Source: Escherichia phage APECc02
DNA length: 64,000 nucleotides
Sequence record: NC_041869.1
Strand: one strand, 5' to 3'
Both the position numbers and the translations under genes were made by a program. This document shows positions 2,580 through 64,000 of the stretch, in pieces (positions within the stretch are counted from its first letter, which is position 1; every line of letters starts with the position of its first letter). The notes under the pieces are model-generated. The model saw only the letters and a program-made list of their open reading frames with translations. It searched no databases and was not told where the DNA came from.

Positions 2580-2880
2580 AGACCCTCCTGTTAGTTATTC
2601 TGCAAGATGGTTGGATGCTGTAATGGAATGCATCATCACTCTCTGCAATAAGTGACTCAACATCCCAATACTTTTCAAAAAGGAACGGATTAGACCCCCA
2701 GTGGTGGGTTATTTTCATCAAGGAGTCTGGTATCATATAACCACAGATCTTAATTACATCGCCAGGTTGAATTGTGTTTTCATGAAGGTTGCTTGCCTTC
2801 TTCAGAATCATACCTTTATGATTCTCGTTTGCATACAACTGGACAATATCTTTATCTTCAACAATAAAAATTTTAAGCAT
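2572..2880 (-). CDS. hypothetical protein
   Basis: 102-aa ORF in the co-directional early block. Confidence 0.45.
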   Translation of the reverse strand: MLKIFIVEDKDIVQLYANENHKGMILKKASNLHENTIQPGDVIKICGYMIPDSLMKITHHWGSNPFLFEKYWDVESLIAESDDAFHYSIQPSCRITNRRVFE

Positions 2881-2939
2881 ACCTAGTTCTCCTAGTTTAT
2901 AGATATCTGACCGATAATATCAGATTAATAACACTTTTG

Positions 2940-3233
2940 TCAAGACTTTTTAGTCTTTCTTGGAGAGCTTTTTGTTGATCTTTTCCTTTTGTGGTAGATT
3001 CCAAGTGCAGCGTTTTCTTGGGCGCACGTTTTAACAGTTCTCAGACAAGAGCTTTCAGCTTTAGGCAGGTTTAACTCCCACCAACCAAGCCAGTAAAGTT
3101 CTGATTCAGACAACTGCTCAGATTCAGCCTTCCGATACAAGGCTTGCATACCTCTGATGATATCGTCCAGAGGTGTATCGAATACAAAAGCTGTCTTATC
3201 GAATTTCTCTTTTACAGATCTCTTAGCCATCAA
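2940..3233 (-). CDS. hypothetical protein
   Basis: 97-aa ORF with a basic Lys/Arg-rich C-terminus. Confidence 0.45.
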   Translation of the reverse strand: MMAKRSVKEKFDKTAFVFDTPLDDIIRGMQALYRKAESEQLSESELYWLGWWELNLPKAESSCLRTVKTCAQENAALGIYHKRKRSTKSSPRKTKKS

Positions 3234-3687
3234 GGTAACCCTCTATCCACGAAAAGTCAGTCTTCCATTCTGGAACTTTACTAAGCTCGCGCCACTCTGC
3301 AAAGCAGTCTCGGTAATACGCCTCTGCCATACCTCTGGTGATCTTATTCACCTTAGCCAACTGATTAACTGCCTGAGCATACTTTCCACGGATATTTGCT
3401 AATCCAGGATGTACCGATGTGTGACAATCTGGGCACAACGCTATCAGTCCGACAAGCCGGATCACTCCCTCTTCGAAAGTGTAAAGTTCATGACACTCCA
3501 CTGGATGTTTGCTGCCTTTACCGCCGCACACCTCGCAAGTGTAGTTTGCCTCTCTGTAGCACTTCTTACGGATCTTATCCCACTCACTCTTCTTCACAGC
3601 GTTTCGGAGGTTATTATACCAAGCTGTTTCTGGGATCAGTTGCACAATAAGCCTGCGTTCAGACCTCATTAAACGTCCGTCTTCCAC
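3223..3687 (-). CDS. Cys/His-rich zinc-binding protein (possible HNH-like)
   Basis: 154 aa; CEVCGG...ECHE...CPDCHTSVH arrangement (CxxC ... H ... CxxCH). Confidence 0.4.
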   Translation of the reverse strand: MEDGRLMRSERRLIVQLIPETAWYNNLRNAVKKSEWDKIRKKCYREANYTCEVCGGKGSKHPVECHELYTFEEGVIRLVGLIALCPDCHTSVHPGLANIRGKYAQAVNQLAKVNKITRGMAEAYYRDCFAEWRELSKVPEWKTDFSWIEGYLDG

Positions 3688-3696
3688 GTATCCCCC

Positions 3697-3918
3697 TTAT
3701 TCAAAGAAATGGGTGCGAGGGCAGGAACCTGCCTCGCCTTGTTTCACAAGCTCGTAGAGCTCACCTTGGCTTGTCTCATAAAGGCAAATACGTTTACCAT
3801 TGTCCCGATACACATCGACAAGATACGCTGTTTCACCTGCAAACACGACACCACAGGCCAGACATGCTGCCATGAACAAAATTGCCAACAGAAAATCTTT
3901 CATGGTTAAACACTCCAT
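3697..3918 (-). CDS. small membrane or secreted protein
   Basis: 73 aa; hydrophobic N-terminal segment (FLLAILFMAACLACGVVFAG), Cys-containing C-terminal part; immediately downstream of the endolysin on the same strand (holin-like position, unproven). Confidence 0.4.
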   Translation of the reverse strand: MECLTMKDFLLAILFMAACLACGVVFAGETAYLVDVYRDNGKRICLYETSQGELYELVKQGEAGSCPRTHFFE

Positions 3919-3966
3919 AACATTTTATGAGGTAACAATACCACGTCCGTGTGGTTATGTCAATGA

Positions 3967-4437
3967 TCAATCCAGGACAATGCCGCCTGCCTTTTTAAAC
4001 ACCTCGATCAACTTCTCGATCTTCTGTTCATGCTGACCATATCCCGCGCCGGGTAACGAAGCCCAGCGGGAACGGCATTTGCGGATAGCTTCGTGGATAC
4101 GCCCTTCGTCAATGTCGGCGAGAGCCTTGCACTCACGGATCAGTTGCAACGCAATCTTGTCCTGACTGGCAGGGCCAAAATCTGGTAATCCTAACTGTTT
4201 CATGTAGTGTTTAGCAAACTTCTCCAAAACCTGGTAACGACCAGCAGCGGAGGAGGTAAGTTTAGCATTTAGCTTAACGTAAACACCTGGATGCTTGCTG
4301 TAATCGCTGAACAGCTTGCCGCCGACTATGACATCGTACCCCCGATCCTTGGTAGGTTGTCTACCATTATCTGTTCCTTCCGAATATGCGATCATATCCA
4401 AGAAAGCTTTTCGTTGAACATTTTTATCAAGTTTCAT
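3967..4437 (-). CDS. endolysin, lambda R-like lytic transglycosylase
   Basis: 156 aa; QRKAFLDMIAYSEGTDNGRQ...GYDVIVGG...AGRYQ...WASLPGAGYGQ closely parallels phage lambda R along its whole length. Confidence 0.85.
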   Translation of the reverse strand: MKLDKNVQRKAFLDMIAYSEGTDNGRQPTKDRGYDVIVGGKLFSDYSKHPGVYVKLNAKLTSSAAGRYQVLEKFAKHYMKQLGLPDFGPASQDKIALQLIRECKALADIDEGRIHEAIRKCRSRWASLPGAGYGQHEQKIEKLIEVFKKAGGIVLD

Positions 4438-4561
4438 TTTTCATACTCTCCAGTTTGCTCATAACTAACCCGATCAACAACACTGCATAGTGTGGTTATG
4501 TAGGTGCCAATTGAAAAACCATCATTCAATTGGCTACCGTTACCTACTAAACCATCCTACA

Positions 4562-5845
4562 TCATTCCAGAACCTCCCAAGTATCTGGGTTAACATTTCG
4601 GACGCAGATACCGACAGGGAATTGGTAGTTGTTGTCTTCTGTCCTTGCTTGATATTTGAAGGTGACAAACTTGCCGATCATTTCCTGCATCCTGTCATAG
4701 CTACGCTCCTCGTGCGTGCCTTTCATCTTCATTTTAACAACAACACCTTCCTTGTCAACACAGATAAGAACACCTTCATCATTCTTATCTTTCTCAACGT
4801 CAATAACTTTCACCTCTGCGTCGTTGAACTTTTTCCATTTCAATGCTTCAGATGTTCGCTGACCATACTCATATTTACCACAGAAGTTACGCATAATGGT
4901 ACCTTCATATCCTTCAGACATAAATATACCAACAGACTCTTCGCACCGATCAACCGTATATGCAAGCTCTGCATCAACAACCTTAATATGATCAAGCATC
5001 AAAGAAGTAATAGCACCGTTTGCCTCCATAAGATCCTTACAGCGACCAGACTCTGTTTCAGGATCCCACCACACCTTATCGCTAGGAATATCGAAAATAT
5101 GATACTCTAAGTCGTAGCTGCAGTACCCTCCGTAACGCAAATCATCACGAACAGGCTCAACATCAACAGGAATGTCCACCTTGTTGAAGTTTTTGTATGT
5201 TGCTAAACCTGCTTTAATCGCAGCCTGACGGCGTTTTTTATCTGCCTTGTAGTCTTTATCGATCTCGGCCTGAATTTCTTCCTGTGTGCGCCACCGTTTA
5301 GCAAGAGACACTATTTTCTGCAGAGGCAGACCATGAATATAGAGCTCTCCGTCGAGCTGTTTAATCCCGGTGGTTAGGTGGAAAGAGCGAAGTTGCTCCA
5401 GAAGCTTTCCTTGAATAGGGTAGGACTTATTACCACGGGAAATAAATTTAGGCTCACCATTCTGGAAAACAACAAGTAGACGAAGGCCATCTAACTTACG
5501 CAAGATCCAGCAAGGTAATTTAAGTGCCTTGCCACGCTTCAGGTAGTCATGCACCAACATGGGTAAAAGATCAACACCTTGCTCACAATCTTCCATACTC
5601 TCCACGTACCCGAGTCGGACCTGTTTTTCCCACTTACTGATCGCTTCCAGCTCGGCCTGTTGCTCAGCTGTAGTTTCATTGGCGCGACCCACGTTCTTAG
5701 GTGTGCAGATCGTCTCTTTGTATTGCAGTTTACCATCAAGCTTGCCAAACTCTACGATAACCTTATCACCATCCGTGAATACTTTCCACTGTTGGTAGCT
5801 GCCATCTTTGTTCAGTGCGTACAGTGTTGTTTTGATTTGATGCAT
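4562..5845 (-). CDS. ATP-dependent DNA ligase
   Basis: 427 aa; nucleotidyltransferase motif I KLDGLR (adenylated Lys), motif IV EGTIMR, motif V LKWKK. Confidence 0.85.
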   Translation of the reverse strand: MHQIKTTLYALNKDGSYQQWKVFTDGDKVIVEFGKLDGKLQYKETICTPKNVGRANETTAEQQAELEAISKWEKQVRLGYVESMEDCEQGVDLLPMLVHDYLKRGKALKLPCWILRKLDGLRLLVVFQNGEPKFISRGNKSYPIQGKLLEQLRSFHLTTGIKQLDGELYIHGLPLQKIVSLAKRWRTQEEIQAEIDKDYKADKKRRQAAIKAGLATYKNFNKVDIPVDVEPVRDDLRYGGYCSYDLEYHIFDIPSDKVWWDPETESGRCKDLMEANGAITSLMLDHIKVVDAELAYTVDRCEESVGIFMSEGYEGTIMRNFCGKYEYGQRTSEALKWKKFNDAEVKVIDVEKDKNDEGVLICVDKEGVVVKMKMKGTHEERSYDRMQEMIGKFVTFKYQARTEDNNYQFPVGICVRNVNPDTWEVLE

Positions 5846-7199: not shown

Positions 7200-7961
7200 T
7201 TAAAGTTCCATAAAGTTTTCTACAGTCTCAATGAATGTTTTATCAGAGAAGGCATCAACCGCACCGTTAAACCAAACTGGGATGCCGCGATCCTCATACT
7301 GGTAAATATCACTACGTGAAATGCCATTCTCCTCTAGATGCTGTGAGTCGTATTTATTAACGATCAGTAGTTTGGTTCCCTTATTGCAGGCAGGGAATAG
7401 CTCCCAGTTAAAATTGATAACTGTGTTGGAGCACCCTACAAGGATAACCATATCATTGCTCGTAAGAGAAGTCAACAGGTCATACATGTCTGTATACTTC
7501 GGAGCTACTTCTCCGAAGAACACCACATTAGGCTTAACCCAGGTATACTTTCCTGCGTCTACCTCAGAGTATCCAATGTCCTTAATGACGTCACTTCCTT
7601 CATCGTCCTCATAGACTATTTCTGGCAAATACCCGTGGACATGTAAAATATCTTCATGTTTTACACCAGCACGCTCCAGCAAATCATCTACATTGGTGGT
7701 AAGGTTGATCACACGACCAGACCAGCGGGAATACCACTCAGCGATCCGAAGATGTGCAAGGTTAGGCTCAACACTGCCTAAAGCTACACGACGTGCATTG
7801 TAAAAGTCATGCACCTTATAGTAGTTCTTGGCAAAGGTGTGGATGTTGCACACCTCATCGATGCTGAAATTCTCCCACATTGCAGTGCTACCAGATCGGA
7901 AAGTGGGAATACCAGATTCAGCGCTCAAACCAGCACCGGAGATAATAATCAGTCGTCGCAT
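7200..7961 (-). CDS. Sir2-family (sirtuin-like) NAD-dependent deacetylase / ADP-ribosyltransferase
   Basis: 253 aa; the three sirtuin hallmark motifs are present: ISGAGLSAESGIPTFRS (GAGxSxxSGIPxFR), TTNVDDL (TQNID-like) and HVHGY (catalytic His-Gly). Confidence 0.8.
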   Translation of the reverse strand: MRRLIIISGAGLSAESGIPTFRSGSTAMWENFSIDEVCNIHTFAKNYYKVHDFYNARRVALGSVEPNLAHLRIAEWYSRWSGRVINLTTNVDDLLERAGVKHEDILHVHGYLPEIVYEDDEGSDVIKDIGYSEVDAGKYTWVKPNVVFFGEVAPKYTDMYDLLTSLTSNDMVILVGCSNTVINFNWELFPACNKGTKLLIVNKYDSQHLEENGISRSDIYQYEDRGIPVWFNGAVDAFSDKTFIETVENFMEL

Positions 7962-7969
7962 AAGTGTCC

Positions 7970-8320
7970 TCAGTAGATGTTTTGTTTAATCTCTATTCCA
8001 AACTTTTTAAACGAGTCAGCTGCAAGCATGAATTTACGAGCCGCTGATGGGTTAGAAGTATGCACGAAAATCTTCACGTTGTCAACTACAGGAGGCTTAC
8101 CAAATACAAATTTTTCCTCTAGGATGCAGAAGCAATCGTATCCTTCAAAAATTTCTCCCAAGTCGCTGTCAAAATGCCACTCAGAAACTCGTCTATAAAG
8201 CTTTCTCTTGTCATTGATGAAATCCATAAACTCAGAAGAGTTCTTCAGCCAAAGAGCATCTTGGAGCCCGTAATTTGACGGATCTCTCAAGTCATCCAGC
8301 CACACAATCAACTTCTTCAT
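7970..8320 (-). CDS. hypothetical protein
   Basis: 116-aa ORF packed between the Sir2 gene and the RNA-ligase-like gene. Confidence 0.45.
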   Translation of the reverse strand: MKKLIVWLDDLRDPSNYGLQDALWLKNSSEFMDFINDKRKLYRRVSEWHFDSDLGEIFEGYDCFCILEEKFVFGKPPVVDNVKIFVHTSNPSAARKFMLAADSFKKFGIEIKQNIY

Positions 8321-9252
8321 TGCATATAGTCCTCGTTGTGGAAATAGTAGTCAAGTATCTCGCGGCGTTCCTGCTCAAGGAGACAGTTCCACACATCTTC
8401 TGTGTAATTGCTACGAATGAAGTTTACCATGCCGTAAAACTCTTCGTCAACACGTTTAAAGATATCCTCATCCCAAATCTTCCAAGCTTTACCTCTCATT
8501 ACGGCCTTCCGTGCCAAATAGTACGGAGACTTGATCTTCAGCTGCAGATCATAAGGGTAGTAAGGCTTACGAATCATATACCCTTCACCTCTTGTTTCTG
8601 CAGCTAATTCTTTTGCATAACTGAACGGAATTTCACGCACAGTGTGAGGACGTTTTGCACCAAGGTATTTGGCAATCCCATCTAAAGCTGCCTCTGGTAG
8701 CATTATTCCAGAATCATTATATCTGCAACCTATCAAATATGCGCCATGATCTTCCTGAACAATATGCGGATCTGAAGGGTGACAAATTTCAAACATGAAT
8801 GTCATGTTTTCATTGCCCATAACCTTCTTGATAAGATCTAAATTACCACATTGCTCCTGGATGGTTTCCTTTGCGAGGTTACAATATGGAGAATCAAGAG
8901 ATCCGGTTGTTGAGAACAATAGTTCACCTTTATGAGAGGATACCACACCAAGGAATCCGTTCTTTTTCTCTACCGCCGTCACAAGCTTATTGTCAGGCAG
9001 GTTGGTGGAGTTTTCTCCCAAGTTAAACACTTTTGTGAAGGGCCATGCCACAACATTTCCTTCATTACCGACAACAATGCCTCGGCACTCCAGTAAACGA
9101 GGGGACAAATGCCATAAATTGTTGTAAAATACTTTTCTGGCATATTTATAGATCTTTAACCCAAGATCCGGGTAATATCTACTGGTTACAAGACCTTTGT
9201 CAACTAGGTCGTCTGCATTAAAATACTTCATCATACGTTCCTCATTTGTCAT
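8317..9252 (-). CDS. putative RNA ligase (covalent nucleotidyltransferase)
   Basis: 311 aa; motif I KKNGF (Kx[DN]G), motif IV EGYMIRK, motif V LKIK; a separate DNA ligase already exists at 4562-5845 and a PNK-like kinase lies next door. Confidence 0.6.
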   Translation of the reverse strand: MTNEERMMKYFNADDLVDKGLVTSRYYPDLGLKIYKYARKVFYNNLWHLSPRLLECRGIVVGNEGNVVAWPFTKVFNLGENSTNLPDNKLVTAVEKKNGFLGVVSSHKGELLFSTTGSLDSPYCNLAKETIQEQCGNLDLIKKVMGNENMTFMFEICHPSDPHIVQEDHGAYLIGCRYNDSGIMLPEAALDGIAKYLGAKRPHTVREIPFSYAKELAAETRGEGYMIRKPYYPYDLQLKIKSPYYLARKAVMRGKAWKIWDEDIFKRVDEEFYGMVNFIRSNYTEDVWNCLLEQERREILDYYFHNEDYMQ

Positions 9253-9295
9253 TTTGTCAGTCTATCCTGCCACACAAATAACCTAGTGTCAACAC

Positions 9296-9324
9296 TTGAA
9301 ATTAACAAAACAGTTAGGTATACT
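9296..9324 (+). promoter_or_regulatory. sigma70-like promoter (TTGAAA-N17-TATACT)
   Basis: Hexamers with 17-nt spacing in the divergent intergenic region upstream of the kinase gene. Confidence 0.5.
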
Positions 9325-9352
9325 ATCGTTGAAATTAAAACGGAGTATTACT

Positions 9353-9763
9353 ATGTCTAAAATGCTATATATCGTGCGTGGTCTACCAGGGTCTGGCAAA
9401 TCAACACTGGCAAATGCGCTATCTTTAGAAGGTCTGTATCCACATTTTGAGAACGACATGTTCTGGTACGACGATGATGGAAATTACAACTGGGATGCAA
9501 GTAAAGTAACACTTGCAGCAAAATGGTGCAAAGATAACGTAGAAGATATGATGCGTATGGGATACGACCGTATCGTGGTAAGTAATACGTTTACAAAAGA
9601 AAAATATGTGCAAGAATATATTGACATGGCGATCAGTCATGGGTATAGTTATACCGTGATCGTGGTTGAAAACCGCCATGGTAATAAAAGCATTCATGAT
9701 GTTCCAGACAGGGTTGTGGATCGTATGGAACGCCAGCTTAAAAATTGCATTAAACTTAAATGA
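9353..9763 (+). CDS. polynucleotide 5'-kinase (P-loop, T4 Pnk kinase-domain-like)
   Basis: Start moved to the ATG at 9353 (GGAG RBS upstream). Walker A GLPGSGKST and IVVSNTFT resemble the T4 Pnk N-terminal kinase domain. Confidence 0.7.
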   Translation: MSKMLYIVRGLPGSGKSTLANALSLEGLYPHFENDMFWYDDDGNYNWDASKVTLAAKWCKDNVEDMMRMGYDRIVVSNTFTKEKYVQEYIDMAISHGYSYTVIVVENRHGNKSIHDVPDRVVDRMERQLKNCIKLK

Positions 9764-9770
9764 GGAATGT

Positions 9771-10325
9771 ATGAAATACTTTGTAACAAGCGACACACAC
9801 TTTCTCCACCAGCGGGTCATGGAGTTCGACTCATGTCAAAAACACAGATCTCAGTATGATCACAATCTTGACAGTATGAATGCGGGAATCATCACCGAGT
9901 GGAACTCTGTTGTGTCACCTGCAGACACTGTGTTCCACCTGGGAGATATTGCGTGCACTAATGATAAGAATATCAACAAATTGCTCCCAGATGTTCTAAA
10001 TATGTTGAACGGACATATTATTCTTGTTCGTGGTAACCATGACACAAGGACGACTGTCAGAATTATGAAAGAGTTCGGTCATGAGGTTGTAGATTATTAC
10101 GAGCTTCGCCACAACAAGAATTTGATCTGTATGAGCCATTACCAGTTTGCAAAGTGGAACAGAAAGCCTCACGGATCAGTCCAACTGTTCGGTCATGCTC
10201 ACGGAACCACACAGCAGTTGTTTGGCAGGCAGTTTGATGTCGGTTGGGATGTGTGGGGGAGACTCTTACCATTAGAAGAGGCATACCGTATTGCAATGAG
10301 TCTTGCTATTGACAGCGGGGAGTAA
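9771..10325 (+). CDS. calcineurin-like metallophosphoesterase
   Basis: Start at the ATG at 9771 (GAGGA RBS). Metallophosphatase motifs SDTHF, GDIA, GNHD and GHAHG. Confidence 0.75.
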   Translation: MKYFVTSDTHFLHQRVMEFDSCQKHRSQYDHNLDSMNAGIITEWNSVVSPADTVFHLGDIACTNDKNINKLLPDVLNMLNGHIILVRGNHDTRTTVRIMKEFGHEVVDYYELRHNKNLICMSHYQFAKWNRKPHGSVQLFGHAHGTTQQLFGRQFDVGWDVWGRLLPLEEAYRIAMSLAIDSGE

Positions 10326-27344: not shown

Positions 27345-27373
27345 TTGACAATGCACCATAATCATGGTAAAAT
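27345..27373 (+). promoter_or_regulatory. sigma70-like promoter (TTGACA-N17-TAAAAT)
   Basis: Perfect -35, 17-nt spacer, TGG immediately upstream of the -10. Confidence 0.6.
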
Positions 27374-35013: not shown

Positions 35014-37611
35014 ATGCGTATTCAACATAACATTGATAACGTATTTCAGATGATTGAGGGGCACAGGAAGTGCCTCGATAACAACACAGGTATTACCAAC
35101 ACCCCTACACAAAATAAGCTAGTAAACCCTGATGGTCTTATAGCTGCAGGGTGGGCAGGTAATAAGATAAATAATGATTGGGCAATGCATGAGTCCCAAG
35201 CTGTGTTGATTCTGGGATACATTGAAGCATACAGGGCATCGAAAAGCGATTTCTATCTGGATAGGGCAAAAGATGCTTGGGAAGCTTACAATAGCCATCT
35301 TCTGGGTGCATATGCAGTAGAAAGTAAAATGCAAAGATTGTCCCACTACCCTCTATCCACAGATGGGGTTCCATCACATGGTGGGTTTAAAGATGTGGTG
35401 GTGTCTTTTACCAACGGTAGAGGAAAAATCCCAGCTGGATCTCCGACATGGGGGGAATACCTTGACAAGGCATTCCAAGCGTATAACGGTGTGTTAGGAA
35501 GAAACACTGTAGACTCTGATGTTTACGGTGGCACAGATGCTAACCCAGATTGGACAACATCCGGATTAAGTTGGTGGGTTGAGTGGTACATAGCATGGGA
35601 TGGTAACCGCTATTGGGCTAACGGTAGCATAGCCGACAGTGGTCATACGTCTGTAGAGTTCGGCACAATCCAATTACAAGATAAGGGTGTTACAGGAAGC
35701 CACAAGGTAACCTATTGTGTGAGATTACCTCAAGAGCAAGGTGGATCGGTGATACCTGCAGGATCCCCTGTAATTGTAAATCCCATAAACGTGGTTGCAG
35801 ATAATCAGGCCCCAGAGTTGGACGGGGAAGAAATGTGGTGTGACGCTTGTTATCAACTCTACACCTTGACAGGTGAGGAAAAGTATTACACCGCGTTTAA
35901 ACAGTCTTACAACAAATTGCTTAATTTCAGTGATATAAACGCCTACGACAAACTGTTTAGGAAGACCACGTTGATTAAGGCACCGTTTACAGATGGTACT
36001 TGTCTTGTTGCAGGAACAGTTCCTGTCATGAGCAGGGACAGTGACGGGTATATCAATTTTAGAATGAACGCACGCCAGCCTTGCGAAATAATTCAAAAAG
36101 GGACTACATACAAAATAGGCAGAGATGCTGAAATTGTTATGAATTTCGGAGGAGAAGGGGTTCTGTTCCAGCCACATTTCATCCTTAATGATGGCAACAA
36201 TAACAAAAAACAGTACAGGATAGGGGTTCCTTTTGGAGGGGCAGGGGTAACAGAAATAGTTGCCAAGGTTACTGATTTCGTAGAGGTAGTTGGTAAAGAC
36301 GGTAATCCGTATCTCTTACCTAAAGAGGAAAACATTGCCGTAAGCGGTGGTGCTGGTGTTAGTATGCAGTATGATACCGACATCTACAACCACTCTGACA
36401 ACTTCACCCGTTGTAATATAGCAAGAGGTAAAGTAACTTTCAATTTTGGAAGAGAGATTTCTTTAAACTCAGTAACTTATCGATCAGATGATGAGATGGT
36501 AAGGGTCAAATTTCTTGACAAAGATAGGTGGTTATGGTATGCTGATCTATATGCCACTAATGGACAATGGATAACAGAAACTCTTACTCTAGGAGACTTC
36601 AAACTAGATCCGACACAACCTCATCACACCGAAGAAGAGATTAAACCTTTCTTTGCTAATCCTAAGGGGCTCACCTCTGTAGATTTCAGCCTAAGCGACA
36701 GACAGATAGGTAATGGCTTGTTTGATCTATATTGCGTCAACACACTGCCGCAATTTTATATTGCAGATAGGGATGCTTATCTAATCTGGTTTAGCGTATG
36801 GATGGCAAGCAAGACAGAATCAACCGCTAAGGTTGGCGATTGCTATGTCAGAAACTACAAGCAAGGTGCATACAGGCACACACCAGGTGTGTTCCCTGCC
36901 GGAAAGGTGATAGATAAGGAAAACTATCTCTTAGAGGAAAAGCCAAATTGGCCCTACCCTGGCATGCAATACCCAGCAGTATACTGCATGGGTGCAGAAA
37001 ACATAGATCGCCATAGATTGTCAAATACAATAGGCTTTCTGTATGACGCTCAAGTCTGGTATAATAATACATTTAAGACAGAGGGTCCAGTTGCCTCGCG
37101 TTATGTATGGCAGAGAGGTAATGAAGGGCTGACTGGTTGGTGGGAGATGGTAGATAACTCTAAGCTCCAGTCAAGATCTTTTGTTGCTGCGTGCCGCACA
37201 ATCTATGAGCTCAAGAAACATAAAGAACCTGTTGATGAAAGATTATTCCTGTTCTGCCAGAAATGGGCATGGTTCCTCAACAGATTCCAGTCATCTCATT
37301 CAGGAAATCTACCTACAGACTTTAACACCTCTGGGGGATATTCTTATCAGGACAGAGGAGACAGGATGTGGGTGGTAGGTGAATGGCTTGCAGGTTGCTG
37401 CTGGCTAGGTCTGTGCGGGTATTCAGAGACAATACCTCAAATAGATATTGTTGTAGAGGCCTGTGTGAAGCTACTGCAAAAGCACCACTTCATTAATGGG
37501 GATAATGTTTTAAACGGCTGCTGGGCAGTTTCTGATCCGGTTGGCTATCACTCTGGCGAAATCCTTCGCGGTCTGGGCCTTTATGCTCAATACCGTGGAT
37601 TGTACCTTTAA
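35014..37611 (+). CDS. large hypothetical tail protein
   Basis: 865-aa ORF, Trp/Tyr/Gly-rich, followed by a GC hairpin. Confidence 0.45.
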   Translation: MRIQHNIDNVFQMIEGHRKCLDNNTGITNTPTQNKLVNPDGLIAAGWAGNKINNDWAMHESQAVLILGYIEAYRASKSDFYLDRAKDAWEAYNSHLLGAYAVESKMQRLSHYPLSTDGVPSHGGFKDVVVSFTNGRGKIPAGSPTWGEYLDKAFQAYNGVLGRNTVDSDVYGGTDANPDWTTSGLSWWVEWYIAWDGNRYWANGSIADSGHTSVEFGTIQLQDKGVTGSHKVTYCVRLPQEQGGSVIPAGSPVIVNPINVVADNQAPELDGEEMWCDACYQLYTLTGEEKYYTAFKQSYNKLLNFSDINAYDKLFRKTTLIKAPFTDGTCLVAGTVPVMSRDSDGYINFRMNARQPCEIIQKGTTYKIGRDAEIVMNFGGEGVLFQPHFILNDGNNNKKQYRIGVPFGGAGVTEIVAKVTDFVEVVGKDGNPYLLPKEENIAVSGGAGVSMQYDTDIYNHSDNFTRCNIARGKVTFNFGREISLNSVTYRSDDEMVRVKFLDKDRWLWYADLYATNGQWITETLTLGDFKLDPTQPHHTEEEIKPFFANPKGLTSVDFSLSDRQIGNGLFDLYCVNTLPQFYIADRDAYLIWFSVWMASKTESTAKVGDCYVRNYKQGAYRHTPGVFPAGKVIDKENYLLEEKPNWPYPGMQYPAVYCMGAENIDRHRLSNTIGFLYDAQVWYNNTFKTEGPVASRYVWQRGNEGLTGWWEMVDNSKLQSRSFVAACRTIYELKKHKEPVDERLFLFCQKWAWFLNRFQSSHSGNLPTDFNTSGGYSYQDRGDRMWVVGEWLAGCCWLGLCGYSETIPQIDIVVEACVKLLQKHHFINGDNVLNGCWAVSDPVGYHSGEILRGLGLYAQYRGLYL

Positions 37612-57257: not shown

Positions 57258-58623
57258 ATGCTTCCAATCCCTTTGCTAAAACTTGGTCGTCATTTCCTCG
57301 ATAAGAGGGGTGGAATTAAGGAACTTGCTGTTCTGTCATACCCAATAGACAACAGTGATGGTACAAGCAACACAGTATCCTATGTAAATAGCTTAGCTAT
57401 ACTTTTTGATGATGGTCAGCTTAATATTACTGGCTATAATAGGTTCGGAGAGTGTCGGACTGGAGATCTTGATACAATAAACTATCCTAATGAGGCAGCT
57501 TGGAACGTAGACCATGTTTGGAGAGCTGACCGTGCATTTGTAATCCGCACATTCGATAATAAATTTTTCTATATTGGTTGCACAGCTGGTCTTATCGGGA
57601 TCGGAGGCAGCAGGTGGAAACGATGTTTGTGTCAGAGAGTGGGCACCTTTGCCGGAACAGATCGTAACAGGGTTGCATTTGGACACCCATCCTGAGAGAC
57701 TTGTTGAAGTAATGGGTGGCGTAAACAATACAGTGTGGGTAATTGCTGCACCAGAGGCTGATGGTATGCTTCACCTGTACGGCTCTGGCAATAATACTTA
57801 CGGCTCTCTTCATGTTGACAAAAGTCAACACGCTACTCCAGTTAAGATCGGTGAAACATCTGAAAGTCCAGAGACAGGTCCTTGGAAAAATCCAAGAATT
57901 AATTGTGAAGTTCATGACAACTCGGTTATTTTTGGTGGTCCTAACGGATTCTGGATTGCAGGTTACGATTTCTTAAGAAATAACAGCAAAAACACACTAG
58001 TTTATCCAGCCGAGCATGTGACTCTTGACCAGTTTAAAGGCATCCCGGTGGGCGAGACATGGAAAGGGTTCATGTGTGGACCTAATGGTGCAATTATAGC
58101 CACAGAAAGGATGCACAAACCTGATGACCAACAGCTTGTTAATGTGTTTTATGGTCAGGATGTTTGGGGTGACGACACGTGGAGAAGCCTTAACATCACC
58201 TATACCCATGAAGTAATTATGGCTCGCGGGTACGGGACTAGTGGAATTTTCTTCAATAATGGTACAAAACAGTACCGTGGTTTCTCCAGAAACCTGTGTA
58301 ACGATATTGGTGCTCAATCTGCTAATAATAGTCCTAGGGCCAATTTTATTCATTACAGAGCGCTGGCAACAGCTAAGTTTGTTGAACAGACAGAGCCAGT
58401 AAGCTGGACAGAAAGCGTTTATTTTCAAGGGATCCACAGGGAAGGTTTCTTAGGCACATTCTGTGTGGTAAATGGAAAGCTTTGGTGGTCAGGAATACCA
58501 CGTGGTAGTTTTTCAGGATCTAATAACCTCTTTAGCGGCAGACTTAACAGCCAAGGGTTGCTAAAGTTTTCTCAGGTATTAAATGGAATCTACCTGTCCA
58601 AAGTATTTCATGGAAGCAAATAG
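57258..58623 (+). pseudogene. RCC1-like repeat protein gene, reading frame disrupted by a +1 change near 57606-57620
   Basis: ATG 57258 with GGAG RBS. Frame 0 carries repeat-like GYNRFGECRTGD and FFYIGCTAGLIGIGG then stops at 57695; frame +1 is open from 57562 and continues the same repeat type (LHLYGSGNNTYGSLHV) to 58623. Confidence 0.45.
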
Positions 58624-58739
58624 GTGATAACAAGCTGCTGGTTACCCCTGCCTGTCAGTTCAACGCAACTCTTAACGTTGATCCTGCTGTTGCGGCAAAC
58701 TCAGCTAAAGCTTCTGACTTCTCTGTGTCTAACACTGCT

Positions 58740-59930
58740 ATGGCAGATGTGAGGAAGATTGACACGCTGAACGCCAGAATTACCTGTAAAAACACTTATG
58801 GCACATTCCAAATCATCAACAACTTCACAGATGCTGATTCTAAGGTAGTGAGGACAGCAAGCCAGACTCTGAGTTTAGGGACTCTGGCCTATGCGGCCCT
58901 GATCACCGAACAGTCGGCAACACTCCAAGGAGGCGGTGTAGGCAAGTCCATTGCAACACCTGTGTGGAAGCCGAATGAGTGGGTTGTGTTTGATTTGACT
59001 GTGGACTTCTCCAGTGATAATAACTGGACATGGGTAAGGAATTGTTTGTCACAGTTGATGGGCGGTCCAAGCTCCGTTAGTGATAGTCACGACTCTACTG
59101 ACCCGAGTGTGTTCCAGGTAGGTAAAACTCACCCAGAGACTGGAGAAACGTTGCCTGACAGGAAGTATGCGTTGGTTTGCATCTCTTACGGGAAGGCAGA
59201 TGTCACCTTCTCAGGGACACACACTTATAACGGAACCTACAATTTCTCAAGGAAGTATAGTCTCAAAGCAGGGAACATTATAGACGAGGTTGGTGCACTG
59301 TATAATCCTGGCAACGGCATAGGGATTGTGGGTGGTCAACTGCAGATGCAGGAACCTTCTATTACCCCTTCCAACGTATCTGGGATTAGAAAGACTTGGG
59401 AAAGTAGCAATACCAACATTGCAACAGTGGATGCTACCACAGGACTGGTAACATTTAAAGCTACTGGGAATGTCACCATAAAGTTTGTAGTTACAGATGA
59501 TGCAGGCCGCAAAACGTCCTCAACATCATTCACTGTCAAACAGATGGCACCTCAGTGGTTTATTTGGGAAGGAAATCCTCTTGACGGGGCCTACCCTAGA
59601 CCTGCAGGAACGTCTAATATGAGGGTCTTTACCGGTCCGGTAATGAACAATCCGACCACAACCACCAACCCTACATTTTTTGGTGCTTACATACCTGAAA
59701 TTATTGGCCTACCAAGGAACCAGATACAACTGCTTTTCGGAGCAGGTGTTGATGGTCTAGCCACTTTTGGGTACAGTGACAACATTGATGCAGCCAGAAG
59801 CTCGGGTTGGATTGGATTTAAGTTTCAGTGGAACCCTGGTGGTAGAACATTAGGTCTTGCAAGCATAGGTGTTATGCTACCTGGTAACCAGCAATACCAT
59901 CTCGAAGCTTATACAAACTTCCCTAGTTAA
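58740..59930 (+). CDS. Ig-like domain-containing protein (possible fibre or decoration protein)
   Basis: ATG at 58740 (GTG at 58725 is an alternative); ATGNVTIKFVVTDDAGRKTSSTSFTV resembles a bacterial Ig-like (BIG2-type) strand pattern; frame is open upstream into the previous gene. Confidence 0.5.
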   Translation: MADVRKIDTLNARITCKNTYGTFQIINNFTDADSKVVRTASQTLSLGTLAYAALITEQSATLQGGGVGKSIATPVWKPNEWVVFDLTVDFSSDNNWTWVRNCLSQLMGGPSSVSDSHDSTDPSVFQVGKTHPETGETLPDRKYALVCISYGKADVTFSGTHTYNGTYNFSRKYSLKAGNIIDEVGALYNPGNGIGIVGGQLQMQEPSITPSNVSGIRKTWESSNTNIATVDATTGLVTFKATGNVTIKFVVTDDAGRKTSSTSFTVKQMAPQWFIWEGNPLDGAYPRPAGTSNMRVFTGPVMNNPTTTTNPTFFGAYIPEIIGLPRNQIQLLFGAGVDGLATFGYSDNIDAARSSGWIGFKFQWNPGGRTLGLASIGVMLPGNQQYHLEAYTNFPS

Positions 59931-59946
59931 CAGGAGGAAAATAAAA

Positions 59947-59972
59947 AGGGGCCAAACGGCCCCTTTCTTTTT
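59947..59972. terminator. bidirectional rho-independent terminator
   Basis: ggggcc-aaac-ggcccc hairpin flanked by an A run upstream and a T run downstream; separates convergent gene blocks. Confidence 0.8.
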
Positions 59973-59976
59973 ATAA

Positions 59977-60177
59977 TTAGTAATATTCCCAACACGACCC
60001 ATCTTCAGACGGCTGGACACGCTTACCTTCATGATCGACATAGGTGTAACCACAGCCTTCACAGATAACAGGTGCCGCATAACCTTCCTTCCACTGCTTC
60101 TCCGTGATCAATCCTTTCAGATCTCCGCAGTCACGACCAAACAACTCTTCAGAACAGTCTTTACAAAAATCAGCCAT
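59977..60177 (-). CDS. small zinc-ribbon-like protein
   Basis: 66 aa with CKDC ... CEGC pairs. Confidence 0.45.
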   Translation of the reverse strand: MADFCKDCSEELFGRDCGDLKGLITEKQWKEGYAAPVICEGCGYTYVDHEGKRVQPSEDGSCWEYY

Positions 60178-60243
60178 CTCTATCAGTCTCCATATTTAAC
60201 CAATCTATATTACATATTGCCGAAGAAACAGTATTTCATTTCA

Positions 60244-60462
60244 TCACAGATCTCCAACAACTTCCCAAATACCCCAGTGAGCATCTATATCCTTGATAAA
60301 GTATCTTTCTCCACGGTTTGTCCACACACCTATCCCAACTTTACCATCTATCCCATTGTATACATCTGCCTCATACTCTTTGCCCGGTGTAAAGTGTACA
60401 CCCATCATAAGGGCTGTTATTCCGTTAGGATTTTTAAATTTAACAAATTTTACTTTGCTCAT
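60244..60462 (-). CDS. hypothetical protein
   Basis: 72-aa ORF; stop adjacent to the next gene. Confidence 0.4.
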   Translation of the reverse strand: MSKVKFVKFKNPNGITALMMGVHFTPGKEYEADVYNGIDGKVGIGVWTNRGERYFIKDIDAHWGIWEVVGDL

Positions 60463-60463
60463 A

Positions 60464-60793
60464 TTACTTAATCCTTGCAGTTACAGTAGCGCTATACCCC
60501 ATGTAGTTATGAGACATAAAGAATGTAAGCCCTTTAAGTTCAGGATTCTTTCTAAGAAATCGTTTCAATTTTCGAATGCAATTAACACCATGATCATAGT
60601 TTGAGAAATTAAATTTAATACCCTGCTCCATCATAGTGCACACTTCTTCATGGGTATGCCATTGTCTATCGTGGTCACAAAACCAGTAACCAATACCTTC
60701 TTTTTCTTGGATATGCAATCCCCAAAATACTTTATGCATTGGATATTTTGGTTTTCTACCATGATAATGTAGTTTAATATTCACATGTGCCAT
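60464..60793 (-). CDS. hypothetical protein
   Basis: 109-aa His/Trp-rich ORF. Confidence 0.4.
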   Translation of the reverse strand: MAHVNIKLHYHGRKPKYPMHKVFWGLHIQEKEGIGYWFCDHDRQWHTHEEVCTMMEQGIKFNFSNYDHGVNCIRKLKRFLRKNPELKGLTFFMSHNYMGYSATVTARIK

Positions 60794-60962
60794 TTTTTGT
60801 TACTCCGTTCTGTATCTGTGATAATGAGAATAGCAAACTGGGGTGTGTGCTGTCAACAACATTTTTTAAGCGTTTTGGGGAAGTTTTTTGAAAGGTGGGT
60901 GTAATCACAAGAGAGGGTGGAGTTATTGAAGGCACAGGCCTCTTTTGAGGCCTTAAAATCGA

Positions 60963-61343
60963 TTATGACACTTTGACGTAGCGCTCTGACAGAGCTGGAA
61001 AGCCAAAAGCAGTACCTACACTGCCGTACGCTATCCACCATTGAAGTTCATCGTGACACCATTTTCCGATCAGAAAGGTGCTTGGGTAGCGGGTCAGTAT
61101 TTTGGCATAAGCTTTAGGGTCTGCATCCTCTGGGATAATGATGCTTGGAACATCTTTGTTATGACCACAGCAGCAGTTTAGAGTTTTCAATCCTGCCGCC
61201 CATAGACTCATGATAGGCTTAGCCATGCACTTATCAAGGCACACACGTTTTTTGCCGTCTCGAAGTTTTTTAGGCACATCGACGATAACATTTGGATGCT
61301 TGGCACCTTTCACTTTCCAATTATAGGATTTACACTTGCACAT
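60963..61343 (-). CDS. hypothetical Cys-rich protein
   Basis: 126 aa with clustered cysteines (MCKCK, NCCCGH). Confidence 0.4.
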   Translation of the reverse strand: MCKCKSYNWKVKGAKHPNVIVDVPKKLRDGKKRVCLDKCMAKPIMSLWAAGLKTLNCCCGHNKDVPSIIIPEDADPKAYAKILTRYPSTFLIGKWCHDELQWWIAYGSVGTAFGFPALSERYVKVS

Positions 61344-61550
61344 TTAATCAGTCTCCGTCTAGAAAGCAATACTTTACTTAAAATCTTTGTCACCTATTAC
61401 GATTGCACGAATCCACTCATTGTGATGTTCAATGGCGGTAAGGTGTAACATAATGCAGTGATTGTCATTACTAAACACGGTGCGGTAAGCTTTGGCAGCA
61501 CCATGATATAACTTCCACATCAGGTAATGATATCTTCGCCTCATGACTCT

Positions 61551-62021
61551 TTACTCCGGTTCAGGGTCTGGGTAATCTTCAATAATAAAGGGCCATCCGT
61601 TCCGCTTAGCCTCAGACTTATACTCAATCTCCTTCATTGCAAACTCTAACTGATTCTTAGCCGGAATACATGCCGGAGAATCATCAATCCAGATATCTGG
61701 GTAGATATCAAACTGCGCCAGATAGGCTGCCTTCTGAACACCACCAGTATAAAACACACCAACATCAAGCTCCTTGCGCCAATACTCAATGTCTACATTG
61801 TCTTGAGTAATGAATCGGAAAGTCACAAGGTAGACTGTCCACCCCTCCTTCTTCAGATCCCTGGTCAGGCGGGAGAAGATGAAAGGGCTCGCATTAAACG
61901 TTCCATCAAAGTCAATGGCAATGATGTGCGTGCCGTGGCGAGTCTCATATGGATTGCTCGTGGTAAGATTGCTGTAATTAAAAGGGACTTCTTCCCCGCA
62001 GTAGCTGTAGTCCATATTCAC
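61551..62021 (-). CDS. hypothetical protein, possible HAD-like phosphatase
   Basis: 156 aa; IIAIDFDGTF resembles HAD motif I (DxDGT). Weak. Confidence 0.35.
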   Translation of the reverse strand: MNMDYSYCGEEVPFNYSNLTTSNPYETRHGTHIIAIDFDGTFNASPFIFSRLTRDLKKEGWTVYLVTFRFITQDNVDIEYWRKELDVGVFYTGGVQKAAYLAQFDIYPDIWIDDSPACIPAKNQLEFAMKEIEYKSEAKRNGWPFIIEDYPDPEPE

Positions 62022-62293
62022 ACCTTCTCGTTGATAAATTTACGGGCGGTTTGGTGAGTTGTTTCTGCTGTCTTCAGAATGATATTAATTTTATTGTCAA
62101 GATCATTCATCTCTGCAGTTAATTCAGGAATCTCTCCGGCATGCATGGTAAAATCATACATAGACATGCCCAGAATCTCATTGATGCGGCGGTTGCATTC
62201 TGCAGCACGCTGGTTCATTTTCCAAGCTAACACCAAAGCCTCCTGCGTAGCCTCTAGTGCAAAATCTAATACGTCGGCCTCTTCTTTCGTCAT
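62018..62293 (-). CDS. hypothetical protein
   Basis: 91-aa helical ORF overlapping its neighbour by 4 nt. Confidence 0.4.
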   Translation of the reverse strand: MTKEEADVLDFALEATQEALVLAWKMNQRAAECNRRINEILGMSMYDFTMHAGEIPELTAEMNDLDNKINIILKTAETTHQTARKFINEKV

Positions 62294-62352
62294 CTCAGTC
62301 TCTCCTGTTGTATTGTTGTTGGTAGGTGCATGAATACCTTATAACTCACCTT

Positions 62353-62919
62353 TTATTCAAACTGTAATAGCAAGTCCACTACCGCGCTAGGTCTGTCAAC
62401 AAATTCCCCAGGTCCACATGCCCACAGAGGGTATCCGTCTACATACCGCCAAATCCAACCTGCGGTGTGGAGTTCGAGCAGGGCAGTGCCGTCCTTACTG
62501 TCAACCACTCTTTCCCACAGTGTTGGGCAGCGAAGCTTGAGAATCGGATCACCCCCCTTATACCCGTCCATGTAGATACCCATTGCAAAGTTCAGCATCA
62601 TCTTTTTGTGCACTGATCTCTTACTGAGGGTGCTCATCACTTCCTCTTTGTGAATGTTTGTAAGCTTCTCTTTGGCTACCCGCAGATCGTTGCAACCATT
62701 GTTCAGCAGATCTTCCAAACACTTAATCCGAAGGTCGTGAATGTCTTTGTCGTGTACCGTTGGCACAGGGTCGTAGCGGTATAGCACTGTTGATACGAGG
62801 TTGCTCGGGTGTGGGTCTGACAGCAACCCATAGCCCCAATACTCTTCTGTATCTGAAAGGACAAGACACCCAATGTCTCTGTCAAGCTTTCCTGTGTTGT
62901 AAGCCACATTGACCGCCAT
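62353..62919 (-). CDS. hypothetical protein
   Basis: 188-aa ORF. Confidence 0.45.
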   Translation of the reverse strand: MAVNVAYNTGKLDRDIGCLVLSDTEEYWGYGLLSDPHPSNLVSTVLYRYDPVPTVHDKDIHDLRIKCLEDLLNNGCNDLRVAKEKLTNIHKEEVMSTLSKRSVHKKMMLNFAMGIYMDGYKGGDPILKLRCPTLWERVVDSKDGTALLELHTAGWIWRYVDGYPLWACGPGEFVDRPSAVVDLLLQFE

Positions 62920-62921
62920 GA

Positions 62922-63167
62922 CTATAGCTCCACTAGCAAAGTGCTTTCAAAGTGACGTTCATGCAGACCGTTGTAAGGGACCACTTCCACAACGCCATCA
63001 CGGACATATGGGGCCATCATGGTGGTATAATCTCCAAACGGGTTGGTATTGTCACTAACCACAACCACCTTCTGCCCTTCCTTGGCAGAGTGCCAAATAG
63101 ATCTGCACTTCATCAGGTGTTCGAGAGCCCCAGGTAAAATTTTGTTACGTTCTTTACGGGTCTTCAT
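62922..63167 (-). CDS. hypothetical protein
   Basis: 81-aa ORF tightly packed with neighbours. Confidence 0.4.
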   Translation of the reverse strand: MKTRKERNKILPGALEHLMKCRSIWHSAKEGQKVVVVSDNTNPFGDYTTMMAPYVRDGVVEVVPYNGLHERHFESTLLVEL

Positions 63168-63613
63168 AACAGGTATAGCTCCTTATGAAAGTGATCTTTT
63201 AATTTCTCACTGAGAAACTTCTTGATACCTTCCTCTAAAGTGTTTTCGATGTAGTCCAGCTTAACTGCTTCGATGGACATATCATAGATCGCCAGCTCTA
63301 AGCTGTCAAGTCCCATCATAGCATGAACCATAAGATTTTCATCTTCAGATACATTCAGGGGACTTCCTATGACATCTGGAGGCAGAATAGTTTCCCAATT
63401 ATTCTGGGTGGTAGTTCTCCCTCCCTCTGCTTTACGGCGCAGTTCGAATGTGTTCTTAGTGTAGAACACTTCATAAGAAACGATACGACTGTCGCTCTCA
63501 TAATAAACGAAGTTCAGGTAGGAGCCTAGCCGCAGTCGGCAAACTTCCACCCCAAACCATTGTTTCTTATAAGAATTTAGGCTAATGCTGTCGCATTCAC
63601 GTTTGCTCAACAC
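63164..63613 (-). CDS. hypothetical protein
   Basis: 149-aa ORF overlapping the previous gene by 4 nt. Confidence 0.45.
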   Translation of the reverse strand: MLSKRECDSISLNSYKKQWFGVEVCRLRLGSYLNFVYYESDSRIVSYEVFYTKNTFELRRKAEGGRTTTQNNWETILPPDVIGSPLNVSEDENLMVHAMMGLDSLELAIYDMSIEAVKLDYIENTLEEGIKKFLSEKLKDHFHKELYLL

Positions 63614-63629
63614 GGCTCTCTCCTTTTTG

Positions 63630-63863
63630 TTAATCTTCGTAAATCAAGATTTCTGCTTTAGGTTTTCGTGCTTTCAGGTCCAGCTCTATCCAGTGCACCA
63701 TAGCTGTTTCAAGAAAAACAGCTTGGATGCATCCGTCCTCAGCGTGCCCTACCAACATAACAAGATCTTCACCTTCGTCATCTGCATCACGAACATAAAG
63801 AATCTCTCCAGATTCAAAGTCTTTCACAACCTGATTGTTGGATAATTTACGAATTTTTGCCAT
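63630..63863 (-). CDS. hypothetical protein
   Basis: 77-aa acidic ORF. Confidence 0.4.
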   Translation of the reverse strand: MAKIRKLSNNQVVKDFESGEILYVRDADDEGEDLVMLVGHAEDGCIQAVFLETAMVHWIELDLKARKPKAEILIYED

Positions 63864-63864
63864 A

Positions 63865-64000
63865 TCAGAAACCCTCTAAAAAGCTCTTGTAGAAAACAAT
63901 CTCAGTATCCACACCAGTCACGATCTTGTCGTTCCTGATTTCATCGGTAAGATAGGTGTCAAAACGCAGAACCTGTGTGGTGTTGTCACACATCCACTCT
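63865..64000 (-). CDS. hypothetical protein, partial (N-terminus beyond window end)
   Basis: Minus-strand frame open from the window end to a stop at 63865-63867; protein-like translation (...VTGVDTEIVFYKSFLEGF). Confidence 0.35.
   Translation of the reverse strand, partial: EWMCDNTTQVLRFDTYLTDEIRNDKIVTGVDTEIVFYKSFLEGF

Follow-up and report, generated by a model that had tools for sequence, protein, structure and literature searches.

A leftward cluster of small genes in Escherichia phage APECc02 as the probable distal part of a conserved Vequintavirus operon

The minus strand at positions 59977-64000 of a 64,000-nucleotide stretch of the Escherichia phage APECc02 genome (sequence record NC_041869.1; the whole stretch is henceforth called the window) carries a cluster of small genes, here named g1 to g12. 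A first-pass annotation, made from the letters of the sequence, had described a tightly packed, convergent minus-strand cluster that is separated from the late genes by a bidirectional terminator, and this description was confirmed by the listing of open reading frames (ORFs), their spacing, and the GC skew. The minus strand holds 11 complete ORFs of 56-188 amino acids (aa), and a twelfth (63865 onward), which has 87 aa in relatives, is truncated by the window end. The size range originally given, 66-188 aa, was wrong, as the 56-aa g5 had been overlooked. Intergenic spacers range from -4 to 66 bp with the sole exception of a 169-bp gap from g4 to g3, and the GC skew switches sign near 60 kb. 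Two ORFs of 53 aa and 62 aa in the g4-g3 gap were rejected as genes, being annotated in no relative and overlapping a predicted promoter and a hairpin (see below). The terminator and the genes are as follows (pI, isoelectric point):

59943-59968, both strands: predicted bidirectional intrinsic terminator with a GGGGCC-N4-GGCCCC stem and T-runs on both strands, scoring as a terminator both ways
59977-60177, minus strand: g1, 66 aa, acidic (pI 4.4), zinc-ribbon-like, orthologue of rV5 gene 26, phrog_2210 (no function)
60244-60462, minus strand: g2, 72 aa, rV5 gene 25 family (short allele), aligning to positions 11-81 of the 135-position phrog_15992
60464-60793, minus strand: g3, 109 aa, basic, His-rich, accessory gene also found in RB49-like T-even phages
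60963-61343, minus strand: g4, 126 aa, basic (pI 9.4), Cys-rich, rV5 gene 24
61374-61544, minus strand: g5, 56 aa, basic, rV5 gene 22, phrog_12006
61551-62015 (62021 if a GTG start is used), minus strand: g6, 154 aa (156 aa), predicted capless (C0) HAD-superfamily phosphatase, rV5 gene 21
62018-62293, minus strand: g7, 91 aa, acidic, probably helical or coiled-coil, rV5 gene 20
62353-62919, minus strand: g8, 188 aa, predicted all-alpha, lineage-restricted, rV5 gene 19
62922-63167, minus strand: g9, 81 aa, rV5 gene 18, phrog_4868
63164-63613, minus strand: g10, 149 aa, rV5 gene 17, phrog_6790, labelled "tail protein" in PHROGs and RefSeq
63630-63863, minus strand: g11, 77 aa, acidic, rV5 gene 16, putative member of a tandem paralogue family
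63865-64000, minus strand: g12 (partial), C-terminal 44-45 codons, rV5 gene 15, matching the C-terminus of the 87-aa RudolfGeigy protein bas52_0052

All 11 complete ORFs are real genes under purifying selection and encode small soluble proteins. Across its full length, 59900-64000 was 96-98% identical at the DNA level to dozens of Escherichia phages classified as Vequintavirus (e.g., A51.2, the BASEL phages DrSchubert, RudolfGeigy, and MaxBurger, as well as FFH2 and SophiaRose), FV3 was 91% identical, and 83 phage records covered at least 80% of the region at more than 90% identity. The genes are common to more than 100 genomes of this genus, with DNA identities of 91-98%. Vequintaviruses are rV5-like myoviruses of about 137 kb, and the virulent-phage setting that had been assumed for the cluster holds for this genome. 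The genes agreed one for one with the annotations of RudolfGeigy, SophiaRose, ECML-10, FFH2, and FV3; conservation in related phages, on which the first-pass annotation had made its reading depend, was thus found. The pooled ratio of non-synonymous to synonymous polymorphism (pN/pS) was 0.05-0.08 against five relatives, and the corresponding substitution ratio of single genes (dN/dS) against FV3, the most diverged relative, was 0.02-0.2 for every gene, with, e.g., 37.5 synonymous and 3.5 non-synonymous differences in g8 and 31 and 5, respectively, in g6. The dN/dS values of single genes included 0.1 for g1, 0.05-0.09 for g4, 0.02-0.06 for g7, and at most 0.02 for g8. A GGAG-type Shine-Dalgarno motif stands before each start codon, hydrophobic stretches of membrane-span length were found in none of the products, and the pI of g1, g6, g7, g8, g10, and g11 is 4.4-5.5. 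The earlier statement that none of the genes is recognisable from sequence also held, since scans of g1-g10 with Pfam, NCBIfam, and PADLOC gave nothing significant and PHROGs assigned the cluster proteins to function-less families only, besides one unsupported "tail protein" label. An Rfam scan of the region (E ≤ 1) returned only sub-threshold chance matches at the terminator and at the hairpin downstream of g4. Separately, 15-16 GenBank records named "Campylobacter phage" (MG0656xx; host Campylobacter jejuni) were about 97% identical across the region and are probably mislabelled or derived from contaminated preparations.

For phage rV5, four transcription units have been described, one of which is "genes 11-26" (Kropinski et al. 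2013, Virol J 10:76, PMC3606486); Table S3 of that study lists genes 13-26 with sizes as in g12 to g1 and gives no function for them, and Table S4 lists the terminators t026/t027 as well as the sigma-70-type promoters P011, P020, and P025 within genes 11-26. The orthologues of the window genes g12 to g4 are rV5 genes 15-24, and that of g1 is gene 26, in identical order. The hairpin sequence of the terminator at 59943-59968 is that of t026/t027, and sigma-70-type internal promoters are predicted at similar places. The two phages differ in gene 25, which is a single 135-aa gene in rV5 and is represented by g3 and the short g2 as a cassette in the window. Because orthology, gene order, terminator, and promoter positions match, the cluster was assigned to the distal part of the published unit, the only part of it that the window carries. 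The region is thus, in all probability, the promoter-distal part of a conserved leftward non-structural operon of Vequintavirus, equivalent to rV5 genes 15-26. The cluster had already been described in 2013, and the first-pass annotation missed that publication, the continuation of the cluster past the window, and its division into a core and a tail.

In all annotated relatives, the minus-strand run extends about 3.3 kb past position 64000, up to a divergent promoter region, and comprises 2-3 more genes of 85-87 aa, a 486-aa gene, and a gene of 311-348 aa (the size depending on the record). The 486-aa product, gp12, carries DUF2201_N metallopeptidase and VWA-like domains, and the 311-348-aa product, gp11, matches the PHROGs families "Srd anti-sigma factor" and "decoy of host sigma70". 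The authors of the rV5 study likewise identified gp11, the first protein of the unit, as Srd-like (PMC3606486). Across the divergent promoter from the 486-aa gene, a MoxR-type AAA ATPase is encoded, and the ATPase and the VWA protein may form a phage-borne MoxR-VWA pair (record L001, 10766-12226 and 15878 onward).

At the other end of the operon, the terminator faces the late tail-fibre operon. Its stem of six G-C pairs is lengthened by A-T pairs and is followed by the tail TTTCTTTTT on the plus strand and TTTTTATTTT on the minus strand, and it is a predicted Rho-independent terminator in both directions, as had been proposed for the boundary between the cluster and the late genes. Further candidate regulatory elements lie within the cluster:

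60827-60856, minus strand: predicted sigma-70-like promoter with extended -10 (TTGACA-18-TGcTATTCT), in the 169-bp gap before g3
63281-63309, minus strand: predicted sigma-70-like near-consensus promoter (TTGACA-17-TATGAT), within g10 and upstream of g9
62367-62399, minus strand: doubtful promoter, equivalent of rV5 P020 (TTGACA-21 nt-TGCTAT), inside the 3' end of g8
60936-60953, minus strand: perfect 7-bp hairpin (AGGCCUC-AAAA-GAGGCCU), 10 nt past the g4 stop, with no U-tract

The predicted promoter at 60827-60856 occupies the place of rV5 P025 and differs from it in sequence; it was unchanged in three of the four fetched relatives with g3. The one at 63281-63309 was unchanged in four relatives including FV3 and is not among the promoters listed for rV5. 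The spacer of sigma-70 promoters is usually 16-18 nt long, and the P020 equivalent was rejected as a convincing promoter because its spacer of 21 nt lies beyond this range. In the window (both strands), the strict pattern TTGACA-N17-TAnnnT occurred 10 times against 0.77 expected (13-fold enriched), so consensus host promoters are taken as a real feature of the phage. Several of these sites fall in the late-gene region (e.g., 27345-27373 and 36515-36543). The hairpin downstream of g4 was kept in all five close relatives and might serve in transcript processing or stabilisation or act as a weak terminator. In FV3, it lies within the annotated start of an inserted gene, and that start may therefore be wrong.

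The core and the tail of the cluster were distinguished by comparison with two distant relatives. On a 27-kb metagenomic contig (L019) that carries one distant g8 homologue, the Srd-like gene is followed, in this order, by the DUF2201 metallopeptidase/VWA gene, a single 83-aa gene, g10, g9, two g8 paralogues, g7, g6, and g5, and then by small ORFs that are unrelated and a 1940-aa gene in convergent orientation; g4-g1 are not kept. DNA similarity between this contig and the window is nearly gone, and the homologues at the same positions were recognised at the protein level (g5, E 8e-18; g7, E 6e-24; g9, E 2e-18). Seunavirus KE23 retains only gp11, gp12, g10, and g6. The order in the contig and the gene content of KE23 together define g10-g5 as a collinear core and g4-g1 as a replaceable tail. 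Within the core, weak relatives of g9 were found in Certrevirus and in Klebsiella Vequintavirinae.

Among closer relatives, g2, g3, and the g3-g4 interval varied. Among rV5-like (Vequintavirus-type) records, only 28 carried g3 (at ≥95% identity), and g3 homologues in Krischvirus (RB49-like T-even phages) were 58-70% identical, that of RB49 (69% identity) being part of an insertion that separates baseplate genes 8 and 9. Two alleles of g2, about 50% identical, were present: the window type (at ≥80% identity) in 28 records and the other, which is part of the 135-aa protein in rV5, in 86. FV3 has an extra 167-aa gene between g3 and g4. At the promoter-proximal side of the core, g11 showed weak reciprocal similarity to g12 and g13 (E 0.003-0.03), g13 and g14 (both beyond the window) were clear paralogues (E 3e-10), and the single 83-aa copy on the metagenomic contig matched all four of g11-g14; judged by these similarities, the four appear to be tandem paralogues that have diverged. 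T-even and T5-like phages likewise have plastic regions of small early ORFs, which are tight, mosaic, and composed of small, mostly function-less genes, and their gene content is unrelated to that described here except for g1 and g3. Since its six-gene core is collinear in distant relatives, the cluster is, unlike those regions, not purely plastic.

A possible HAD-like phosphatase had earlier been flagged in the cluster, and this was borne out for the core protein g6 by its predicted fold and its catalytic motifs. Homologues of g6 were found in 332 phage records by tblastn, including Vequintavirinae, phiEco32-like Kuravirus, and 7-11-like phages, and in 11 diverse homologues the residues D37, D39, T41, T67, R69, K97, D109, D113, and D114 were invariant. 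The succession DxDxT, T, K, and DD is the signature of HAD phosphotransferases. In g6, motif I (D37-F-D39-G-T41) follows the strand 33-37 and did not vary among the 11 homologues, with conservation of at least 90% across 66 sequences; motif II (T67) lies at the end of the strand 62-67; motif III (K97) starts the helix 97-102; and motif IV (D113-D114) follows the strand 110-112, with K97, D113, and D114 invariant in the 66 sequences. An AlphaFold2 model based on the 66-sequence alignment had a mean predicted local distance difference test score (pLDDT) of 86.9, above 90 across the core, and showed a Rossmann-like alpha/beta core with no cap insertion; Foldseek matches of the model were weak and mostly to HAD proteins. 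No Pfam or NCBIfam match was obtained for g6 at E ≤ 0.1, one relative matched PF06189 at no better than E 0.078, and searches with the single sequence and the family profile found no HAD chain among PDB sequences. A profile search retrieved at least 490 proteins of 90-190 aa from phages and metagenomes, none with a recorded Pfam domain. As sequence models do not recognise g6, its HAD membership rests on fold and motifs, and the model supports its assignment as a capless (C0) HAD phosphatase with all four catalytic motifs. Compared with other capless HAD phosphatases (the 3'-phosphatase domain of T4 polynucleotide kinase, PDB 1ltq and 5uj0; KdsC/YrbI; MDP-1), the core of g6 comprises only about 105 aa.

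UniRef and several GenBank records name g6 a "polynucleotide kinase". This label was rejected because g6, a single HAD-like domain of 154 aa, lacks the P-loop kinase domain of T4 polynucleotide kinase and any other kinase element, and it forms a separate small-protein family. The predicted enzyme would hydrolyse a phosphomonoester via a phospho-enzyme on Asp37, Asp39 acting as general acid/base and Asp113 and Asp114 binding Mg2+. In ES17 and pSal-SNUABM-01, the g6 homologue is located between the DNA polymerase gene and genes for Nudix, metallophosphatase, deoxynucleoside monophosphate kinase, and ligase proteins. The missing cap and these nucleic-acid-gene neighbours in unrelated phages make a nucleotide or a nucleic-acid end the most likely substrate, a reading at which the gene context hints weakly. 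That the mini-HAD family of Vequintavirinae, phiEco32-like, 7-11-like, and marine phages represents a new class of phosphatase, acting on a nucleic-acid end, on the nucleotide pool, or on a phosphorylated immune signal, is a speculation considered quite unlikely at present.

Elsewhere in the window, at its other strand switch, a divergent trio of genes encodes an Rnl1-type RNA ligase (8317-9252, minus strand), an AAA_33 kinase-like protein (9296-9763, plus strand), and a calcineurin-like metallophosphoesterase (9666-10325, plus strand), with a Sir2 gene at 7200-7961. The trio resembles a set for healing and sealing RNA ends.

The other core proteins gave fewer leads. For g7, only weak, sub-threshold matches to coiled-coil-type Pfam and NCBIfam models were found. 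The g8 protein was at least 99% identical in 84 phage records, and within the phage collection it turned up in no records other than rV5-like (Vequintavirus-type) ones; a word-index search of 5.8 billion clusters found three clusters, and when 1.84 billion representatives were scanned exhaustively with a HMMER profile, five came up, of which one was a repeat-protein artefact, with no domain in either case. AlphaFold2 predicted an all-helical g8 (mean pLDDT 81.7), and no relative of known function was detected by sequence or structure. A constrained role for g8 is suggested by its very low dN/dS. The g10 protein is conserved across Vequintavirinae, with 26-28% identity in Seunavirus, and is named "tail protein" in the RefSeq records of rV5, FFH2, FV3, Murica, and SSE121 as well as in phrog_6790. 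For its rV5 orthologue, gene 17, Table S3 gives neither a function nor mass-spectrometry evidence (PMC3606486). The masses of rV5 genes 17, 19, and 21 are absent from the rV5 virion mass-spectrometry file, the cluster products carry no virion-protein mark in the rV5 listing, and sequence and profile searches with g10 found no tail-protein Pfam model and no PDB sequence match. With no virion mass, no match to a tail model or structure, and a gene in a non-structural operon, the name was rejected for g10.

In the variable tail, the earlier description of Cys-rich or zinc-ribbon-like proteins applied to g1, which has two invariant CxxC pairs, and to g4, which has a conserved Cys/His pattern. Homologues of g1 were found in 834 phage records by tblastn, including Felixounavirus and T5/BF23-like phages, in the latter of which they sit among tRNA genes. 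Six homologues, which represent five phage groups (Vequintavirus, Felixounavirus, BF23, Pseudomonas phage Lana, and Stenotrophomonas phage Bhz59), all have the pairs C5xxC8 and C39xxC42, whereas the other two Cys were variable, a pattern that fits a putative zinc ribbon or knuckle. The g4 protein is nearly restricted to the genus. The only distant homologue examined, an unannotated 98-aa ORF of the N4-like Vibrio phage SBP1 (NC_055784.1, 70719-71015), is 48% identical and has C2, C4, C35, C39, C58, C59, H61, and C96 in common with it; searches with g4, including its family profile, gave no match in Pfam or among PDB sequences.

Across the terminator, the adjoining lateral tail-fibre gene (57258-59930, plus strand; Ig-like/intimin domains) has lost 2946 bp from its interior (positions 1705-4650 of the FFH2 locus); FFH2, RudolfGeigy, and rV5 carry it as one ORF of about 1875 aa. 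An additional base in its 5' part and a missing base just past the junction split the gene into three overlapping frames (stops at 57693 and 58621). Either it is a pseudogene of a phage passaged in the laboratory, or two sequencing errors add to a real deletion.

Three other explanations of the cluster were weighed against the operon reading. That the ORFs are chance frames or decayed, unexpressed remnants, for which their missing database functions and the shortness of several of them (56-81 aa) could be cited, has next to no probability, as it is refuted by the substitution pattern of every gene, and a Shine-Dalgarno motif at each start, the retention of order and protein sequence in the metagenomic contig despite almost no DNA similarity, and the confident AlphaFold models of both proteins tested (g6 and g8) speak against it as well. 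It is also highly improbable that the cluster includes structural or assembly genes, whose position beside the tail-fibre module would reflect a role in the virion. The cluster does abut the lateral tail-fibre gene and g10 does bear its "tail protein" label, but the genes lie on the opposite strand, behind a terminator, in a unit that opens with an Srd-like gene, and the virion data of rV5 and the searches with g10 described above offer no match.

The cluster might further be mainly an anti-defence island, in which most of the small proteins, especially those of g4-g1 and g11-g12, would each inhibit one host immune system (restriction-modification, abortive infection, or signalling). The content of the tail varies between close relatives and is exchanged with unrelated phages, the products are small, soluble, and mostly acidic, the diverged tandem paralogues suggest diversifying duplication, and the g3-g2 cassette apparently brings its own putative promoter. 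All of this would fit such an island, which is nevertheless considered unlikely. The core is under very strong purifying selection and near-invariant, unlike fast-evolving counter-defence genes, so an arms-race role is less likely for it. No likeness to a characterised anti-defence protein was seen in annotations, cluster names, or the literature, and PADLOC, which models defence and not anti-defence systems, returned nothing; dedicated anti-defence profiles were not part of these searches.

The preferred reading of the cluster as the distal part of a conserved non-structural operon implies that the host RNA polymerase with sigma-70 would transcribe the unit early or in mid-infection, starting from the divergent promoter region past the window and from the internal promoters predicted at 60827-60856 and 63281-63309. 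For the products other than g6, the most likely mode of action would be binding to host or phage proteins, for takeover or, in the variable tail, for counter-defence. The first-pass annotation had noted that such clusters often hold host-takeover or anti-defence genes, and by context (the Srd-like first gene, the sigma-70-type promoters, and products missing from the rV5 virion data) such a role is reasonable, above all for the variable tail. Several points weigh against this picture. According to the rV5 authors, sigma-70-like promoters are scattered over the whole genome (PMC3606486), and such promoters alone are hence no marker of early genes. Data on transcript timing, knockdown, or toxicity for the genus were not found in the literature searched, where queries on Vequintavirus transcriptomes, on CRISPRi-ART data for the rV5-like EdH4, and on counter-defence genes of the subfamily yielded nothing about these genes. 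Functional evidence is absent for nine of the 11 proteins. As the ligase, kinase, and metallophosphoesterase trio at 8317-10325 is already present as a separate set, g6 is less likely to be an RNA end-healing phosphatase.

Being real, conserved, and already published, the cluster is ordinary for a large virulent phage. What the present analysis contributes are corrections to the labels of g6 and g10, a map of core and variable genes, and g6 and g8 as candidates for bench work. Phages of the rV5 type are used in biocontrol and in therapy cocktails, and given this use, knowing which of their genes are dispensable or host-specific would be of some practical value.

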